Origin: a virus
Taxonomy: Duplodnaviria; Heunggongvirae; Uroviricota; Caudoviricetes
IMG/VR virus record: IMGVR_UViG_2563366924_000006
Location: 1 to 28,035 of that record
Reading direction: 5' to 3' (one strand)
DNA length: 28,035 nucleotides
Made by a program: the position numbers and the translations under genes. This document shows, in pieces, positions 3,359-28,035 of this stretch. Each line of letters opens with the position of its first letter. Position 1 is the stretch's first letter. Under the pieces are notes generated by a model. It saw nothing but the letters and a program-made list of their open reading frames with translations. It was not told the origin of the DNA and made no database searches.

Positions 3359-4060
3359 TTAGCCAATCATTGCCTCCAGTGCGCTCAAATCACTTCCTGT
3401 GAAAAGAATGGCTGCAGTATGTACCGCATCCGGATGAGGTAGATTTTTTACCAGCTCCACCGCTGTTGTCAGCGCCGGCCCCTTCATATTGAAAAACCAC
3501 GCTTTCGCCGTTTTCCCCTGCAATTCAGTCATTGCGCTTGCGATGTCTGCCAGTGCTGCGGTGCGCTCCTGAAGAAAACCCGCCAGCCCCGTGGTTATCG
3601 AACTCACACTGGCAGCTGCGGCCGCTTCAAGTTTTGCCGCCTCAATACGCGCAGCGTTCAATGCCTGCCGTGTCGTTTCTGTTGCGACGTTAATTGGGGC
3701 AGGTAATGCCGAAAGCACATCCGGCAGCTGCATTTTCACCTGTTCCAGTTCCCCAAAAGACTGCGCCAGCCGGCGCACCTGTTTCAACTCCGGCATGGGC
3801 AGGACTGAGGCAACGGAATCAAGGGATGAAAGTAAATCGCTGTGCGTGTTTTCGCATAGCATCATGATGATGTTGTGCGAGCCGGCCCCCTTCTCCAGCA
3901 GGCGCTTGCCCAGATAAGAGATGGCATTTAGCGGGCTGAGATAGCCCCCCGATTGGGTATGTTGGCCCAGTTCAGGCACCCATGGGTGAGCAGGGATAAC
4001 ACTGCAGGATAAAGAGGTTAATTGCGCCGGTATGCGCAAGGTGGCCTGTGTCCATGCCAT
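3359..4060 (-). CDS. Hypothetical tail-operon protein (about 233 aa from ATG at 4060)
   Basis: ORF track start at 4063 is GTG; the ATG at 4060 overlaps the TGA stop of the upstream fibre assembly gene (TGATG), suggesting translational coupling. Ala-rich predicted helical segment. No family recognised. Confidence 0.5.
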   Translation of the reverse strand: MAWTQATLRIPAQLTSLSCSVIPAHPWVPELGQHTQSGGYLSPLNAISYLGKRLLEKGAGSHNIIMMLCENTHSDLLSSLDSVASVLPMPELKQVRRLAQSFGELEQVKMQLPDVLSALPAPINVATETTRQALNAARIEAAKLEAAAAASVSSITTGLAGFLQERTAALADIASAMTELQGKTAKAWFFNMKGPALTTAVELVKNLPHPDAVHTAAILFTGSDLSALEAMIG

Positions 4061-4587
4061 CACGGGCGCTCCGGCCAGATGATTTCAGGTGCGGTACTAA
4101 TATCAAGACGGCGCAGAGCAGTACGATAAATACGCCATGCGGCGAGTTCTGCCAATTCTTCAGAAGTTATATCGCCATCATCCTGCGCTTCAGCCAGCGA
4201 GTTAATACGCGCACTGGCTAATGCCATTTCACTGTCGCGCCGCTGTGTCGCTACGGCTAGAGCATCAACAGGCACGGGAATGATTTTTCCCTGGCTAAAC
4301 AACCACTCACCCGATTCACCATTAAAAGCCTCCGGGACATCGCTCATATTGATTTCAGCGACGGAGAGATTAACTGGCCTGAGCATGGTGGCATCTGATG
4401 ATGCGGCGATAATACGACCACTATGATCATAGGTAAATTTCAACGTGTCCTCTGCAAATTGTGCACGCCGGTGATACCAGTCGATCCCCTGGTCATCTTC
4501 ACAAAATTCAATATTGAAAGATGCTTTTAAATCCTCCTGAACCGGCGTCAGGTCTGTACTAATCTTGAAGTTTTGAAAATTTTTCAT
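4060..4587 (-). CDS. G: Tail fibre assembly protein (P2 gpG-like chaperone)
   Basis: 175 aa, immediately downstream of the tail fibre gene; C-terminal region (ELAELAAWRIYRTALRRLD...) resembles the tail-fibre-assembly domain. Confidence 0.75.
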   Translation of the reverse strand: MKNFQNFKISTDLTPVQEDLKASFNIEFCEDDQGIDWYHRRAQFAEDTLKFTYDHSGRIIAASSDATMLRPVNLSVAEINMSDVPEAFNGESGEWLFSQGKIIPVPVDALAVATQRRDSEMALASARINSLAEAQDDGDITSEELAELAAWRIYRTALRRLDISTAPEIIWPERP

Positions 4588-22376: not shown

Positions 22377-25031
22377 CTATTTATCCCGACTGAACACCCA
22401 GCAGCGGAATGTTTCTGGCATTCGCTGCATTTCCCCTTTGCCCTTGTTCGCCCGTTCGCTAACCGCACTACGTTTCGTCGTTTGGCCTATGAAACGTCGC
22501 TCACTGCTGCTTTTAAGGAGTTTTTTGATTTCCGTTAATGTGAAATTCATACGCTGCCGGTGAGCTGCGGCGACTTCCTCCATGTGATTAAAGTTAACGG
22601 CTATTTCACTGTCATCTGTTGAATGATTTATACCGAACGGCGCAAGTTCATCAAGATAATCAAACAGCTCCCAGAACTCCTGAACAAGTGGATGATCCTT
22701 TTTGAGTGCATGGCAGCGCTCGATGGCCAGCGCGGTGATGGCTTCACGTGTTTTATGAATACGGTCAACAGAAAGAGGCACAACAAGCGCCAGCGCTTCG
22801 AGCAACCCCGCTAATTGAGCATGGTTTTTCGCTACACGGATATGACGAATATCAGGGTGTGTTTCCAGTTCATTACGGGCGCGTTCATAACCACGGCCAT
22901 AAGCTTCCAGCACTTCCTGTTCTCGCATAATGGACTGCAGAGTAAAGCCTGAAACCTGGCTAACCGGTATTTGCTCAAGGCGTTCAGCTGCGTGGCGGGT
23001 ATGAATAGACTGGCCACGTTTATCGGTATAGATATGAATGATACGCTCCAGAAATGCCTTGCTGCCGTCTGTATCCGCATTCTGTGCTATCACGATAGCG
23101 CCCCGGAATGGCGGCTCGTATGTCTCGTTATTGTTAGATTTGATACCCACGGCGCGGGATGCGCGACCGTTATAAAGGGATTTCAGCTCATCCCAGTCAA
23201 AAGCGCGCTGTTTAGCATTATCCGTGGTGCGGTCACCTTCTATCAGCACTACAGGCAAATTCCCTACCTGTGCAAAGTTACGGCCACGCGCTGCAGGTGT
23301 AGATTTTGACGGGTCAAAACCTTCATATTCTTCACGGCCAGCAAGCTTCCAGAGAAATTCTATCAGGGTAGATTTACCCGTGCCGGGTTCACCGACAATT
23401 TCCAGAAACGGGAAAGATTTATCACGCTCGCGTATCTGTTCAGCAAATAACGAACCCAGCCAGAACGCCAACGCCACATATCCTTTTTCACCAAATGCCG
23501 TCCAGATATCATCCACCCAACCCGTAGTGAACTCATTCAATTTTGGATTTAGATCCAGTGATGGCGTTAGGCTCAGACTTTTAACGCTGGCACTGTTGAT
23601 TTCGAAATAATCCTCATCGTTCATCTCATACAGCTTGCCACTGCAGACCGCCACTCGGTTAAACAACCAGGCTGAATAATCTTTGTTATAGCCGATAAAA
23701 TTCTGCGTTTTCACTTCTTTGATTTCTGGAAGCCGCAACTGGATAAACTTATCCAGCTGTTTGGTACTGCCGGTGTAAACCGCACCTTTAGCAATATGCA
23801 AAAGGCGCTTTTTAAATTCTGCAGAGCTGGTCAGTTGATTCGCAGTAAACGTGTCCTTAATCGCGGGGTGATTGGGCATATTTACTTTCACGTAATACCA
23901 AGATTCATCCGTCGGCTCAGAGCGCTGGTAATACAACGGAGTCAGCCAGCAGTTGGCGATTTCAGTCACGCAGCCAGATTCTTTCACTGCCCGCGCCTTG
24001 GCTTCCCATTCCATCACCACTTCCTGCCCGGAATTAGCGATACGGTCATAGGCTCTCATGTATCTGTCCAGGTCCAGTTCGAACCAGTACATGCGGGAAC
24101 CATGCTCAAAATAGAAGGAATGCCACTCATTATGCTGATGCATCAGCAGGGCTTTTTCAGTCGGGCTTTTTGCCAGCAGAAGATCGCCAAAATAACGATA
24201 GTTTTTGATGTCCGATTTGCTAAATCTGTCGCGGATTAGCAGGTCATTCCAGTCAAGTTCAACTGCTGTTTTGAGCGGCTGCGCCGCCCGGACATCCCAG
24301 CCAGCAGACTTGCTGCGTGATGCAAATGAAAGGGTGTGTTTCGTTCCGGCCTTATCGCCATCAAAGGCCCAAACCAGACGTGGCCGGGGTTTCTCACCCA
24401 GTTCTTTAGCCAGCGCATCGAGCGAGGCCAGAGGATAGTTATTGCTACTGAGTGTAGCCACAGCGGGTAAACCGGCCTGGCATAAACTGAGAGCGTTAAA
24501 AATACCCTCAGTTATCCAGATTTCTTTTGCATCAGGCAGGTGGATAAACGGCGGCACCCACCAGTGACCACCGTAATTGCCTGAGAAATGCGCCTTCTGT
24601 TTGAAACGGTCTGGCTGGTCAATGATGCGCTCCCATGTAGCGCCGTTGGCCAGCTTAAATTTAACAGTGGCACTACCCAGCCCATGACGGACAAACGCGC
24701 CCTGGGTAAAACAACCTTTGAGAATGTCAGTATCAAGGCCACGCGCTTCACGTAAATACGCTTCTGCCGCAGCAGCCGGTGATTCGACTGTTGCGACATA
24801 CCGCTTTGACCAGTCCTCAAAAATATCGGAATACAGCTCTTTGACTGCGACCTCCTTACCGCATTTATTTTCACGGCCACATTTAAGAAGCCAGGGCTTT
24901 TCCGCACTGGTAAATAGTTCGCGTTTCTGGCAAGCAGGGCAAACACCCTGCTGTAAATATTTATCTTTCTCTTTAAATTCAAAATCATTAATGAGACGGC
25001 GAACAACTTCCTGTTGTATGGATACGTTCAT
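22377..25031 (-). CDS. Phage P4 alpha-type primase-helicase replication protein
   Basis: 884 aa; N-terminal zinc-ribbon (CPACQ...CGRENKCG), primase/Toprim-like acidic region (EGIFNALS, WAFDGDKAG), Walker A GEPGTGKST in the central helicase-like domain, long C-terminal domain. Confidence 0.85.
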   Translation of the reverse strand: MNVSIQQEVVRRLINDFEFKEKDKYLQQGVCPACQKRELFTSAEKPWLLKCGRENKCGKEVAVKELYSDIFEDWSKRYVATVESPAAAAEAYLREARGLDTDILKGCFTQGAFVRHGLGSATVKFKLANGATWERIIDQPDRFKQKAHFSGNYGGHWWVPPFIHLPDAKEIWITEGIFNALSLCQAGLPAVATLSSNNYPLASLDALAKELGEKPRPRLVWAFDGDKAGTKHTLSFASRSKSAGWDVRAAQPLKTAVELDWNDLLIRDRFSKSDIKNYRYFGDLLLAKSPTEKALLMHQHNEWHSFYFEHGSRMYWFELDLDRYMRAYDRIANSGQEVVMEWEAKARAVKESGCVTEIANCWLTPLYYQRSEPTDESWYYVKVNMPNHPAIKDTFTANQLTSSAEFKKRLLHIAKGAVYTGSTKQLDKFIQLRLPEIKEVKTQNFIGYNKDYSAWLFNRVAVCSGKLYEMNDEDYFEINSASVKSLSLTPSLDLNPKLNEFTTGWVDDIWTAFGEKGYVALAFWLGSLFAEQIRERDKSFPFLEIVGEPGTGKSTLIEFLWKLAGREEYEGFDPSKSTPAARGRNFAQVGNLPVVLIEGDRTTDNAKQRAFDWDELKSLYNGRASRAVGIKSNNNETYEPPFRGAIVIAQNADTDGSKAFLERIIHIYTDKRGQSIHTRHAAERLEQIPVSQVSGFTLQSIMREQEVLEAYGRGYERARNELETHPDIRHIRVAKNHAQLAGLLEALALVVPLSVDRIHKTREAITALAIERCHALKKDHPLVQEFWELFDYLDELAPFGINHSTDDSEIAVNFNHMEEVAAAHRQRMNFTLTEIKKLLKSSSERRFIGQTTKRSAVSERANKGKGEMQRMPETFRCWVFSRDK

Positions 25032-25071
25032 ATTTAATCCAGATGAAAATAATTCAACGAAAAGGCAAAAA

Positions 25072-25290
25072 TCAGAATTTTATCTGTTTGTTATACCGCT
25101 CATGCGTCATTAATACCCAACGCTGACCTTTATCTTTACTAAGTAAACGCCAGCGTAAAGAAACATGAATAGATAAGTAATGTTTTGGTTTAATGACCTG
25201 ATAAACTTTTCTGCCATCGTAGTATTCACTAAGCATTGAAAATGACTTGTTAATGACATTTTCATTTGCATGAGAAGTCACAATTAACAT
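25072..25290 (-). CDS. Small basic hypothetical protein (54-72 aa) in the AT-rich cargo block
   Basis: ORF starts immediately after the stop of the exonuclease gene; very AT-rich; no clear ribosome-binding site; no family recognised. Confidence 0.3.
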   Translation of the reverse strand: MLIVTSHANENVINKSFSMLSEYYDGRKVYQVIKPKHYLSIHVSLRWRLLSKDKGQRWVLMTHERYNKQIKF

Positions 25291-25292
25291 AG

Positions 25293-25853
25293 CTATTTCA
25301 CACTGTTTTTTATGCCAAGGAACATCCAGATATAAGAAACAATTTTGATATTATGAAGCGCATGTGCCAGTGAGTTACGCTGAAAGTCATATTTAATAAT
25401 GCTATTCATATTCAGCCCAAGTTCTTCTGCTATTGTCACCATGGTAATGACACTCTGCTCATTAGCTTCAAGAAAACACTGACCGGCGAACCTGTCCAGG
25501 TAATGATGTATCACCTTGCTATGCATGGACGGACAACCAAACCAGGTCTTGACGTATTTGGCATCAGAATTTTCAATGATAAACCCGTACAGGTCACAGA
25601 TAGCCAGCTCAATATCCTGACAATCATCATCCAGTATCTGACTGCGAACCTCTGAAGGCTGACGTAACCACCACTGGATAGCGTGGGCACTTACCGTACC
25701 GCCATTACTCATACAGTCATCAAGGCTGATACGTCTGTAGAATTGCTTACCAACCTCCCCAGTTGTAGGGTCAAAGAAAACGGCGCTTAAACCCGTAATA
25801 GCTGCGGTGTGCTTTTCGTCCATCAGTTCTACATCAATCATTAAATGTTGCAT
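25293..25853 (-). CDS. 3'-5' exonuclease, T4 DexA-like (DEDD-type)
   Basis: From the ATG at 25853 (AAGGA ribosome-binding site): MQHLMIDVELMDEKHTAAITGLSAVFFDP... resembles the recalled T4 DexA N-terminus (DFETMG..EKAAVIDLSVIAFDP); second block HAIQWWLRQPSEVRSQI versus STIEWWKNQSPEARKNI. The ORF track N-terminal extension to 25973 is hydrophobic and lacks a ribosome-binding site. Confidence 0.65.
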   Translation of the reverse strand: MQHLMIDVELMDEKHTAAITGLSAVFFDPTTGEVGKQFYRRISLDDCMSNGGTVSAHAIQWWLRQPSEVRSQILDDDCQDIELAICDLYGFIIENSDAKYVKTWFGCPSMHSKVIHHYLDRFAGQCFLEANEQSVITMVTIAEELGLNMNSIIKYDFQRNSLAHALHNIKIVSYIWMFLGIKNSVK

Positions 25854-25866
25854 GTGGATATCCTTA

Positions 25867-26199
25867 TCAGGAAACGTGGCGAGAATTGGAGGAAGTATTA
25901 CGCTTACGCGCAACACTATTAGCAGCCAGAGATATAAGGCCGGGAACACTGCTTTCTTCAGGAACCTGACCACTGAACACCATTAATGTGATGGTGTGCA
26001 ATTCTTCATAGTCTGTTATGTCATTATTAAAATGCGCAGATGACGAAATACCTTCAAGGCATTTTGCCAATTTGATATTCAACTCCATCAACTGCAAAGC
26101 ATCGCTATGAATAGCTGACTGGTCAGTATTGATGTTTTCAATTTGATTATGATAATTCTGCAACAAACTACGAATTATCGTGGCGTATTTTGCTTTCAT
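25867..26199 (-). CDS. Hypothetical early protein (about 110 aa) in the AT-rich cargo block
   Basis: First gene after cox on the same strand; AT-rich; basic Ser-rich C-terminus; start uncertain (ATG at 26199 or GTG at 26232); no family recognised. Confidence 0.35.
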   Translation of the reverse strand: MKAKYATIIRSLLQNYHNQIENINTDQSAIHSDALQLMELNIKLAKCLEGISSSAHFNNDITDYEELHTITLMVFSGQVPEESSVPGLISLAANSVARKRNTSSNSRHVS

Positions 26200-26275
26200 A
26201 ATTAACCCAAAGAATAAATTATTCAATATCACGAATGCTTTTAGAATTACTCACCCATGAGAACACGAGTGATTT

Positions 26276-26572
26276 TTATTGTTTCGCATTCTGCTGTTTC
26301 ATTTTTTCAGTAGTGAATAGGCGGTTTTTCCAGTCATGCCACTCAGGCGGGGCATTCTGTGCCAAGTGGGCAACATATGCATCCCACTCACCTTTATGAA
26401 TATAAACCTCGCCACCTTTTTTTGATGGGTTTAAAGGGTCTTTCATTCGGATTACCGGCAATTTACCAGCTGTCGCCATTTTTCGAATTGCTGCCGGAGT
26501 TTTACCTACATATGCAGCAAAAAGTTCTGGCGTCACAAGGTCTGAAAGCGCGTTTTCGGCTAGTTCTTTCAT
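26276..26572 (-). CDS. cox: Cox-like excisionase / early regulatory protein
   Basis: 98 aa; ...AAIRKMATAGKLPVIRMKDPLNPSKKGGEVYIH...PPEWHDWKNRL resembles recalled P2 Cox (GAVRRMIDKGKLPVIDMTDPQSASGRAGEYWVY...IRDGWLMWLGL); GGAGGA ribosome-binding site; divergent from C. Confidence 0.85.
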   Translation of the reverse strand: MKELAENALSDLVTPELFAAYVGKTPAAIRKMATAGKLPVIRMKDPLNPSKKGGEVYIHKGEWDAYVAHLAQNAPPEWHDWKNRLFTTEKMKQQNAKQ

Positions 26573-26670
26573 CTGTGGTATCCTCCATCAGTTTGGGTTC
26601 CTAAGGCGTTTTAAGTCGTCCTAGGGTTTATTTAGTCAGAAATAACTGACCTAATGATAGTCAGAAGGTT
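26573..26670. promoter_or_regulatory. Lysis-lysogeny switch region between cox (-) and C (+), with candidate operator repeats
   Basis: 98-bp AT-rich intergenic region; direct repeats TAGTCAGAA at about 26633-26641 and 26658-26666 (25 bp centre to centre), a related TAAGTCGTC at about 26612, and a small palindrome GTCAG-N6-CTGAC at about 26635-26650. Confidence 0.6.
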
Positions 26671-26976
26671 ATGACCATGTCAATGAGCTATGCTCAAAAA
26701 TTAAAGAGTATCCGTGCAGCAGAAGGGCTAACGCAAAAACAGCTGTCAGAGCTAACAGGCGTAAGTTTGGGAATGATTAAAAACTACGAAAGTGAACAGC
26801 ATCCAGCTGGCGTTCAGACAGTTGAAAAAGTGATACAGGTCGAAAGGTTCGAAAAATATACACTCTGGTTAATGACGGGAAAAACAGCCCCTGCAGCGGG
26901 TCAAGTTTCTCCGCCTCTCTCCCCTGATGGGCAAGACAAAATAAAATCGCGCCCCTCAGACCAGAAAACTGGCTAA
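26671..26976 (+). CDS. C: Immunity repressor, P2 C-like
   Basis: 101 aa (P2 C is 99 aa); FEKYTLWLMTGKTAPAAGQVSPPLSPDGQ...SDQKTG resembles recalled P2 C FTKYTLWFMTNQIAPESGQIAPALAHFGQ...SGQKTG; HTH-like segment LTQKQLSELTGVSLGMIKNYE. Confidence 0.85.
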   Translation: MTMSMSYAQKLKSIRAAEGLTQKQLSELTGVSLGMIKNYESEQHPAGVQTVEKVIQVERFEKYTLWLMTGKTAPAAGQVSPPLSPDGQDKIKSRPSDQKTG

Positions 26977-27042
26977 TTATCTGGTTTTTCTATTCTTTAT
27001 CACAAAAATTACACAATGATTTTAACATCGGAGGGCTTCGCT

Positions 27043-28035
27043 ATGTCGATTAAGAAGCTTGATGATGGTCGTTTTGAAGTGGATGTAAGACCGCGCGGGA
27101 CTTCAGGAAGAAGAATCCGGCGTAAATTTGACAGAAAGGCAGAGGCCCAGACATTTGAGCGGTACGTACTGACAAACTTTCACGATAAAGAATGGCAGGA
27201 CAAACCGGCAGATCAAAGGCTCGTATCTGAATTGATTACTTTATGGTGGAGTTATCACGGGAAAAATCACAACTATGGTGATTCTTACCGAAAGCGTCTG
27301 GAGAAGATCCACCGCGAAATGGGCGAACCCAGAATCTACATGCTGACCCGTAACTTTTTGATGAAGTATCGCGCTACCAGGTTGCAAAGCGGTGTATCAG
27401 CAGGAACGGTAAACAGAGATTTCAGTGCTATGTCCAGCATGTTTAGCCTGCTGATCGACATGGAAGAATTCCACCATGAAAATCCCTTCCATAGCGTGCG
27501 TAAGCTGAAACTGGAAAACACAGAAATGTCGTTCCTGTCAGAGGATGAAGCTCGGGAATTGCTGAATGCTTTGACTGATGATGACCGCAGAGTTGTAGTC
27601 CTCAGCCTGAATACAGGTGCGAGGTGGGGGGAAGCCAGCAATCTCAAGGCTGAACATGTTATCAGTAATAAGGTGACTTTTGTGAAGACCAAAACAGGCC
27701 CAGCGCGTACCGTTCCGGTTTCACAGGAGGTTGCTGATTATATCCTCACCCGGAAATCAGGAAAGCTTTTTAAAACTGACTACCAGCGCGTTCGTGAGGT
27801 GCTTCGTAAGATAAAGCCCGATTTACCTAAAGGTCAGGCACTGCATGTTTTGCGGCACACCTTCGCAACTCATTTCATGATCAATGGCGGGAATATCATT
27901 ACCCTTCAGAGAATACTGGGGCATACAACGATTGAGCAAACCATGACGTACGCTCACTTTGCCCCGGACTATCTGGCTGATGCAATCAGGTTTAATCCCA
28001 TGAAAGGGAGTGTCCATATAACGTCCACTGACTAG
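27043..28035 (+). CDS. int: Tyrosine integrase, P2 Int-like
   Basis: 330 aa from the ATG at 27043 (GGAGGG ribosome-binding site): MSIKKLDDGRFEVDVRPRG... resembles recalled P2 Int MAIKKLDDGRYEVDIRP; catalytic region LSLNTGARWGEASNLKAEHV, HVLRHTFATHFMINGG and the Tyr in TMTYAHF; TAG stop is the last codon of the window. Confidence 0.9.
   Translation: MSIKKLDDGRFEVDVRPRGTSGRRIRRKFDRKAEAQTFERYVLTNFHDKEWQDKPADQRLVSELITLWWSYHGKNHNYGDSYRKRLEKIHREMGEPRIYMLTRNFLMKYRATRLQSGVSAGTVNRDFSAMSSMFSLLIDMEEFHHENPFHSVRKLKLENTEMSFLSEDEARELLNALTDDDRRVVVLSLNTGARWGEASNLKAEHVISNKVTFVKTKTGPARTVPVSQEVADYILTRKSGKLFKTDYQRVREVLRKIKPDLPKGQALHVLRHTFATHFMINGGNIITLQRILGHTTIEQTMTYAHFAPDYLADAIRFNPMKGSVHITSTD

Follow-up and report, generated by a model that had tools for sequence, protein, structure and literature searches.

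A conserved three-gene segment with a degenerate DexA-like gene and a predicted toxin-fold neighbour in the early operon of an Evevirus-like P2-family prophage

The DNA analysed here, hereafter the window, is the whole stretch of 28,035 nucleotides (nt) of the IMG/VR virus record IMGVR_UViG_2563366924_000006 (Duplodnaviria; Heunggongvirae; Uroviricota; Caudoviricetes). Its minus strand carries a tightly packed row of genes at 22377-26572, namely cox, orfA, an exonuclease-like gene (exo), orfC and a primase gene, and the subject of this work is the trio orfA, exo and orfC in the AT-rich block 25032-26275 (Table 1). This trio belongs to the backbone of a phage clade, in which it is maintained under purifying selection, and the exo allele of the window, a member of the DexA/Rv2179c family, has lost three of its five catalytic residues and most probably encodes a pseudo-exonuclease; the product of orfC is predicted to have the fold of RelE/ParE toxins.

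The gaps within the trio are short, with 13 nt between orfA and exo, and orfC starting 2 nt past the stop codon of exo. The layout is that of the P2-family Pe operon, since cox and then the replication gene follow each other on one strand, the C repressor and integrase genes are divergent, and Pe faces the C gene. In a consensus scan the minus strand showed no further site resembling a promoter or a terminator, either inside orfA, exo and orfC or in the gaps between them; an Rfam scan of 24800-27100 gave no RNA family, and none of the three genes had a meaningful NCBIfam or PADLOC match. Among classified phages Escherichia phage ESSI2_ev239 (Peduoviridae, Evevirus) comes closest, and among genomes that of Cedecea davisae DSM 4568, with proteins 88-99% identical (C repressor, 70%). 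A near-identity DNA search of the locus against the phage collection returned no match, and the relatives used below (designated L plus a number) came from protein-level searches. Within an Evevirus-like P2-family prophage, to which the one of C. davisae is nearest, the segment makes up the AT-rich central part of the lytic early (Pe) operon. The preliminary description of this DNA had placed three co-oriented genes between cox and the primase gene in an early operon, as the open reading frame (ORF) calls and the families of the flanking genes confirm.

Table 1. Positions of the trio and of its neighbours in the window (lengths in amino acids, aa; allele types of exo as defined in the text).
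Feature	Position	Strand	Basis
orfA, 110 aa	25867..26199	-	ORF list
exo, exonuclease-like gene, 186 aa, DexA/Rv2179c-family DEDDh-fold, type 2 allele	25293..25853	-	PF16473, 2.8e-50
exo core, about codons 14-170, spanning the Exo II and Exo III positions, exchangeable cassette	25345..25815	-	DNA alignments of type 1 and type 2
orfC, 72 aa, basic, ParE_like	25072..25290	-	PF24732; phrog_1525
Strong sigma-70-like promoter (Pe-like, early), upstream of cox; overlaps the divergent C repressor gene at its start	26654..26683	-	TTGACA-18-TATCAT, 11/12 consensus match
cox, 98 aa, first gene of the early operon	26276..26572	-	PF10743 Phage_Cox, 3.4e-25; phrog_1831, 7e-43
Toprim-type DNA primase/replication protein, 884 aa, last gene of the early operon	22377..25031	-	phrog_1139 (1191 bits), PF13155, PF13362
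C-type helix-turn-helix repressor, 101 aa, divergent from Pe	26671..26976	+	PF01381, 8e-8; phrog_147, 4e-34
Tyrosine integrase, 339 aa, at the prophage end	27016..28035	+	99% identity to the Cedecea davisae prophage integrase; homologues annotated integrase

The gene order cox-orfA-exo-orfC-primase was found in 16 related prophage or phage loci, 15 of them complete. Eight are genome or phage loci (ESSI2_ev239, an E. coli prophage at pheA, and prophages of Cedecea, Erwinia dacicola, Enterobacter (n=2), Salmonella and Pseudocitrobacter), and the other eight are IMG/VR contigs. The synteny of the trio survives where the identity of int, C and cox is just 34-55%, or that of the primase just about 61%. 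The sole exception is L019, an IMG/VR contig and the only clade member with changed gene content, from which orfC has been lost and into which about 800 bp have been inserted between cox and orfA; its insertion (1761-2569) carries a 75-aa ORF on the plus strand and a 77-aa ORF on the minus strand, and where orfC is absent (3479-3550) 70 nt separate exo from the primase gene. Apart from this insertion, this loss and the exchanges of exo alleles described below, no unrelated genes occupy the slot in close relatives among the 16 loci. The ratios of nonsynonymous to synonymous substitution rates (dN/dS), taken only from comparisons with unsaturated dS, were 0.05-0.15 for orfA, 0.04-0.14 for exo (among type 2 alleles) and 0.08-0.17 for orfC. 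The trio is thus backbone of a phage clade under purifying selection, not strain-specific cargo. In ESSI2_ev239 (L001, 911-2014) an O-acetyltransferase gene lies beyond the integrase, and that position, not the early operon, looks like the place where the clade keeps true cargo.

The base composition of the locus fits the same picture. The guanine plus cytosine (GC) content is 0.396 in orfA, 0.430 in exo and 0.329 in orfC, and 0.389 over the block 25032-26275, compared with 0.507 for the window and 0.49-0.56 for the late genes, as expected from the preliminary description, in which the segment had been judged AT-richer than the backbone. At this scale (1.2 kb) the AT content of the window peaks here: just 0.19% of the 1244-bp intervals match that of the block, and all of them overlap the locus. 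The low-GC domain extends past the trio, including cox (0.44), the C gene (0.45) and the control region, with about 0.405 over 25001-27000, and low GC is common to all eight loci measured (orfA 0.36-0.41, exo 0.42-0.46, orfC 0.32-0.40; primase 0.48-0.54). Since the same low values recur in every measured locus, and cox and C are AT-rich too, AT-richness is no sign of fresh cargo here; it characterises the control and early region as a whole, and marks an old conserved segment rather than a recent import.

The assignment of exo to the family of T4 DexA, already proposed from the letters of the DNA, was upheld by both profile approaches. The protein matches PF16473 with 170.9 bits (cut-off 27) over positions 1-177 of 177, and the profile of its homologues matches the T4 DexA structures 8KEL (4.3e-9) and 8KEN; the single protein compared by sequence with solved structures gave chance matches only. 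A longer, 226-aa version started by GTG was rejected, as the homologues and the Pfam match start at MQHLMID. In DexA the catalytic residues have been reported as D7, E12 (as printed; the sequence has E9), D119, H186 and D191, with W152 and D169 recognizing 5-hydroxymethylcytosine (5hmC), and EcD, an E. coli homologue of DexA, protects against T4 by cutting 5hmC-modified DNA (PMC12153337). The window exo departs from this DEDDh pentad: D7 and E9 are kept, D119 is replaced by H111, H186 is deleted (R159 and N160 flank the gap) and D191 is replaced by H164. Three of the five catalytic residues, whose absence the preliminary description had named as counting against its nuclease reading, are therefore missing from the window allele. 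The equivalent of W152 is A130, and that of D169 is not reliably alignable. The residues needed for cleavage of the HREX type (EcD) are thus not in place, with the catalytic residues lost and W152 changed to A130.

Two classes of exo allele occupy this slot in the clade. Type 1 alleles (L004, L007, L009, L010 and a frameshifted copy in Erwinia dacicola) keep all five residues, within the motifs DxE, WGNGAAFD and HHALYD, together with the equivalent of W152. Type 2 comprises the window and 11 others, 62-93% identical to the window copy. These alleles retain D7 and E9 (three members have conservative E/D exchanges), have H at the D119 position (N in one member) and at the D191 position (K in two members), have A at that of W152 and lack one residue at H186. 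The pentad is intact in T4 DexA, ST64B Sb30, mEp460 gp26, PY54 gp51, the Hafnia and Pantoea P2-like copies and type 1. A new catalytic site built from the histidines at the D119 and D191 positions was considered and rejected, given the H/N and H/K variation among type 2 alleles. Because three of the five DEDDh residues are replaced or deleted and the substituted positions are variable, the window exo is most probably a pseudo-exonuclease and not a two-metal-ion exonuclease; the gene is intact and under purifying selection despite this loss. Identity of the window protein with the published EcD nuclease was also rejected, as the residue aligned with DexA D90 and the numbering differ from the reported A78 of EcD. 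In the literature, no paper was found linking Rv2179c-like proteins with temperate-phage early operons.

A second degenerate form is present in Klebsiella prophages of the Reipivirus type (L003, 3414-3980; L025-L027, about 3426-3992), where E9 is changed to I, D119 to K and H186 to C or R, and D191 is kept. This gene lies directly upstream of a PF24732 gene, the family of orfC, and its loss of residues looks independent of that of type 2, judging from the different changes. In Candidatus Erwinia dacicola (L006, 4600-5200) the type 1 exo is broken by a frameshift and stops, and C and cox are matched by fragments only; by its sequence the same prophage is here decaying within the genome of a symbiont.

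Comparison of a type 2 with a type 1 locus (L008 and L007, respectively) shows how sharply the variation is confined to exo. Between these loci most of orfA and its junction with exo share 85-100% identity, and the stretch that begins ~50 nt before the end of exo, includes orfC and runs into the primase gene shares 90-100%; between window coordinates ~25815 and 25345 (exo codons ~14-170) the identity falls to 30-77%. The same swap pattern was seen in the DNA alignment of the region for the pairs L001/L004 and L017/L009. The alignments indicate that the exo core is exchanged by recombination between type 1 (catalytically intact) and type 2 in near-identical prophage backgrounds, and near-identical orfC genes adjoin both allele types (L008/L007). 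In this sense the variable hotspot suspected earlier takes another form: the gene content of the slot is fixed, and the variation that exists is allele replacement inside exo. Of 5426 complete E. coli genomes, 19 have the type 1 core and not one has the ESSI2 type 2 core, counts from which no useful population frequency can be derived. Also, the two Cedecea type 2 alleles (window and L005) are just 0.67-0.83 identical over window positions 25490-25600 (exo codons ~85-120), a patch surrounding the former Exo II motif, compared with 0.87-1.00 in the rest of the gene.

The small basic gene orfC had been taken for an ORFan, which it is not: it matches PF24732 ParE_like (54.9 bits, cut-off 24.4) and phrog_1525, and a profile search returned 371 clusters, mostly named "ParE family toxin-like protein" or "hypothetical". 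Its 72-aa version is backed by N-terminal conservation across homologues, and a 54-aa version was rejected. An AlphaFold2 model built from 36 sequences has a predicted local distance difference test (pLDDT) value of 92.9, with strand beta1, a helix at 10-24, four strands and a helix at 63-71, and the toxin fold of the RelE/ParE superfamily is confidently predicted from it; compared by sequence with solved structures, orfC gave chance matches only and no toxin. The C-terminal half is conserved as WRLLSKDxGxxWxLMTHExYN, and R48, H63, E64, Y66 and N67 are invariant or nearly so among homologues. R48, H63, E64 and Y66 we take to be candidate active-site residues by analogy with YoeB/RelE. The motif WRLLSKDxGxxW partly resembles the SxDxGxxW Asp-box hairpin (weak BNR/Ycf48 matches), and may be structural. 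No literature on PF24732 was found.

The genomic contexts of the orfC family are diverse. In P2-like prophages of Klebsiella, Hafnia and Pantoea the homologue follows directly after a PF16473 gene and precedes those of a Dam methylase and gpA, with an 8-nt gap from the exo gene in Klebsiella and overlaps of 1-4 nt in Hafnia and Pantoea. Elsewhere it sits between two methyltransferase genes (Salmonella phage SI7), follows a 61-aa ORF (Serratia prophages) or follows a 73-aa ORF directly before a Toprim primase gene (Enterobacter prophage L038). F-type transfer operons also hold homologues, placed between genes for TraV and TraB/TrbI-like proteins, and another occurs in a Xenorhabdus element resembling integrative and conjugative elements (ICE-like), near DnaB helicase-, ParB-like- and topoisomerase-like genes as read by eye from the translations. 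In the F-type tra operons of metagenome and plasmid-like contigs (L031-L033, PF24732 at 4001-4261) a TraR/DksA-type zinc-finger gene lies a few genes downstream, and a TraR-type gene is also found alongside the PF24732 gene in the Serratia P2-like early operon (L028-L030). No constant antitoxin partner emerged in the contexts examined, the upstream neighbour being a DexA-like gene, a methyltransferase gene, or an ORF of 61, 73, 121 or 196 aa. From these arrangements, the pairing of exo with a following orfC is recurrent in P2-like early operons but not obligatory.

Less can be said of orfA. It matched no Pfam family, that of 186 Fil included, and no NCBIfam or PADLOC family, in keeping with its earlier description as unlike fil. 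Of its 31 close clusters, those with a named source are all from Enterobacterales, and it has only 7 matches at E<=1e-3 (4 at E<=1e-10) in 1.84 billion representative proteins. It is modelled as a bundle of helices whose C-terminal tail is disordered and variable (pLDDT 77; five models 57-77); searches by fold gave nothing informative, and comparison by sequence with solved structures gave chance matches only. It is best described as a clade-restricted, predicted helical protein.

The explanation that we prefer is that the trio encodes accessory proteins of lytic growth. In a lysogen the C repressor would silence Pe and leave orfA, exo and orfC unexpressed; upon induction or infection, as lytic growth sets in, the three proteins would be produced alongside Cox and the primase. 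The orfC product would then act as a host-directed inhibitor of RelE/ParE fold, its likeliest target being translation or mRNA and, alternatively, gyrase, and it could dispense with an antitoxin because it would be made only in a cell already committed to lysis. The DexA-like protein would act on nucleic-acid 3' ends at the start of replication, catalytically in type 1 and by binding only or scaffolding in type 2, and orfA would supply a clade-specific helical partner. We hold the anatomy, the conservation and the loss of catalytic residues to be highly probable; the mechanism as stated, lytic accessory proteins with a toxin-fold effector and a binding-only DexA-like protein, is put forward tentatively, as something possible rather than probable; the overall explanation, blending anatomy and mechanism, has in our estimate an even chance of being right. 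Several points weigh against it. The toxicity and the target of orfC are only predicted, by analogy; nuclease activity of the window exo is unlikely yet its absence is unproven, since D7 and E9 remain and histidines stand at two of the lost positions; the absence of an internal promoter comes from a simple consensus scan only; and orfA offers no functional lead.

Among the alternatives, a recent acquisition of AT-rich cargo (a moron) at a variable hotspot, the view taken in the preliminary description, is largely refuted and very improbable. The window does have its lowest GC at this locus, the interval between cox and the replication gene differs in content among P2-like phages at deeper divergence, and L019 carries its insertion just there; against this stand a gene content shared by 15 of the 16 members of the clade, which come from at least six genera, the low GC of every locus measured, the strong purifying selection, and cox and C lying equally in the AT-rich control and early region. 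Where conservation together with a backbone-like composition had been named as speaking against cargo, the trio is conserved in the relatives, with a GC content that is low there too and not backbone-like. A rather unlikely reading, though one that accounts for the place of the genes, which directly precede the replication gene whether the P2-like phage is of the primase or the gpA type, makes the DexA-like protein and orfC pure replication helpers, structural accessories of a primase-driven replisome (e.g., bridging to the host polymerase, clamp or single-stranded DNA-binding protein) with no host-directed toxicity. Inactive DEDD exonuclease domains do act as structural modules in other proteins of replication and RNA binding; nonetheless, orfC homologues lie in F-type transfer operons, far from replication genes, and neither sequence nor fold links orfC to replisome components.

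A toxin-antitoxin or abortive-infection module, in which orfC is the toxin and the DexA-like protein (or orfA) neutralises it, the catalysis of the partner being dispensable, is in our view unlikely. It draws on the predicted toxin fold of orfC, on the recurrence of tight exo-orfC junctions (the 2-nt gap or 1-4-nt overlaps of the Evevirus-like, Hafnia and Pantoea loci, the 8-nt gap of Klebsiella) and on the apparent loss of catalytic residues at least two times independently (type 2 and the Klebsiella Reipivirus-type) in genes still intact, a repeated degeneration that dispensable partner catalysis would explain. Nevertheless, orfC homologues occur with no PF16473 neighbour in SI7, Serratia, Enterobacter L038, the F-type tra operons and the Xenorhabdus element, L019 retains orfA and exo without orfC, and the near-identity of orfC beside both exo types (L008/L007) means that the two do not co-vary. 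Nor is there a small DNA-binding antitoxin, a promoter of its own (by the consensus scan) or a PADLOC match; orfC has no dedicated co-occurring antitoxin gene as expected of a type II system, and is embedded in a repressor-controlled lytic operon. The toxin/immunity module mentioned earlier thus stands as to a toxin-fold protein beside a nuclease-like gene, and fails as to a constant partner gene for orfC. The remaining alternative is a nuclease of defence or anti-defence, with the DexA-like protein degrading the modified DNA of competitors (HREX-like) or destroying or sequestering a host immune signal or nucleic acid, which we regard as quite improbable. The precedent is EcD, the bacterial DexA homologue protecting E. 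coli from T4 by 5hmC-DNA cutting (PMC12153337); in sister prophages the type 1 alleles have both the full catalytic set and the equivalent of W152, and active and inactive alleles at one slot are compatible with an arms-race locus. The window allele lacks the equivalents of D119, H186, D191 and W152, however, and HREX-type cleavage by it is therefore very unlikely; the Pe operon is predicted to be silent in lysogens, PADLOC gave no match here either, and a sponge or decoy role of the inactive form is pure conjecture. A defence role in lysogens is unlikely, because the trio is under the repressible Pe, with no internal promoter-like site on its own strand.

A bolder reading, which we consider improbable, would see in the DexA-fold and PF24732 proteins an undescribed two-gene early module of P2-like phages. 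Exo catalysis would be dispensable in it, the exo protein neutralising, chaperoning or targeting the effector or acting as a decoy; the alternation of active and inactive cores would reflect an arms race with host or competitor systems, and conjugative elements would have taken up relatives of the effector to manipulate the host in the course of transfer.

Both recognisable genes, exo and orfC, belong to known families, and comparison with known systems delimits what is particular to this locus. The window exo resembles T4 DexA and the Rv2179c family (PF16473, EcD included) in its full-length match, its Exo I D-x-E motif and the profile match to 8KEL, and a canonical allele is found at the same slot in sister prophages; it differs by H111, the H186 deletion, H164 and A130, and by its setting, which is neither a virulent phage nor that of a constitutively expressed defence gene but a temperate phage's repressed lytic operon. 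The predicted fold of orfC is shared with the toxins RelE, HigB, YafQ, YoeB and ParE, from which orfC differs in having 72 aa only, a single N-terminal helix, no sequence similarity to solved toxins, and neither a conserved adjacent antitoxin nor an autoregulated two-gene operon. T4 RegB is an early-gene RNase of RelE/YoeB fold for which no antitoxin is known (PMC3014915). We take it as the nearest precedent for an antitoxin-free effector of this kind and as a working analogue for the action proposed for orfC. The modelled orfC is like it in fold, in being a phage early gene and in the absence of a known antitoxin, and a functional analogy would be conjecture; RegB is larger, has an extra N-terminal helix, belongs to a virulent phage and shows no sequence relationship to orfC. 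The early accessory genes of P2 (B, orf80-83) and 186 (cII, fil, dhr) occupy the same slot between cox/apl and the replication gene, and share with the window trio co-transcription from Pe under control of the C/CI repressor, whereas the replication gene of the window encodes a Toprim primase, not the gpA nickase, and for orfA no homology to Fil was detected. Finally, catalytically dead DEDD exonuclease-like domains are used for binding or scaffolding, as in Drosophila Exuperantia. The window exo is similar to these in its retained fold, its lost catalytic acids and the continuing selection; Exuperantia, of unrelated lineage and biology, shows merely that pseudo-exonucleases exist.

What is new is the catalytically degenerate class of exo alleles and its cassette exchange with the active form, together with the recurrent pairing of exo with an uncharacterised, antitoxin-less toxin-fold family and the spread of that family into conjugative operons. 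Intact and degenerate DexA-like alleles swapped in the same prophage background amount to a natural experiment on a non-cutting role, and PF24732, with its 371 clusters in phage early and conjugative transfer operons, offers candidate host-manipulation factors of mobile elements. Besides, an attractive but wrong reading of AT-richness as cargo is corrected. Current views of P2-like biology are not overturned by these findings.

Two further observations concern other parts of the window. Over the C repressor gene and operator region (26690-26890) the DNA identity to the two closest relatives, L016 and L005, is 0.57-0.67, with flanks at 0.94-1.00, and the C protein is 65-70% identical to those of L016 and L005, compared with 97-99% for int and cox; to judge from the alignment, this mosaic looks like a swap of the immunity module among Cedecea prophages. 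At the opposite end, positions 1-1000 form a second AT-rich stretch (GC 0.42, with a minimum of 0.283 over 219 bp from near 198) with no long ORF, left of a late gene of 565 aa (1112-2809), and it may represent the other end of the prophage, an attachment site or flanking host DNA.

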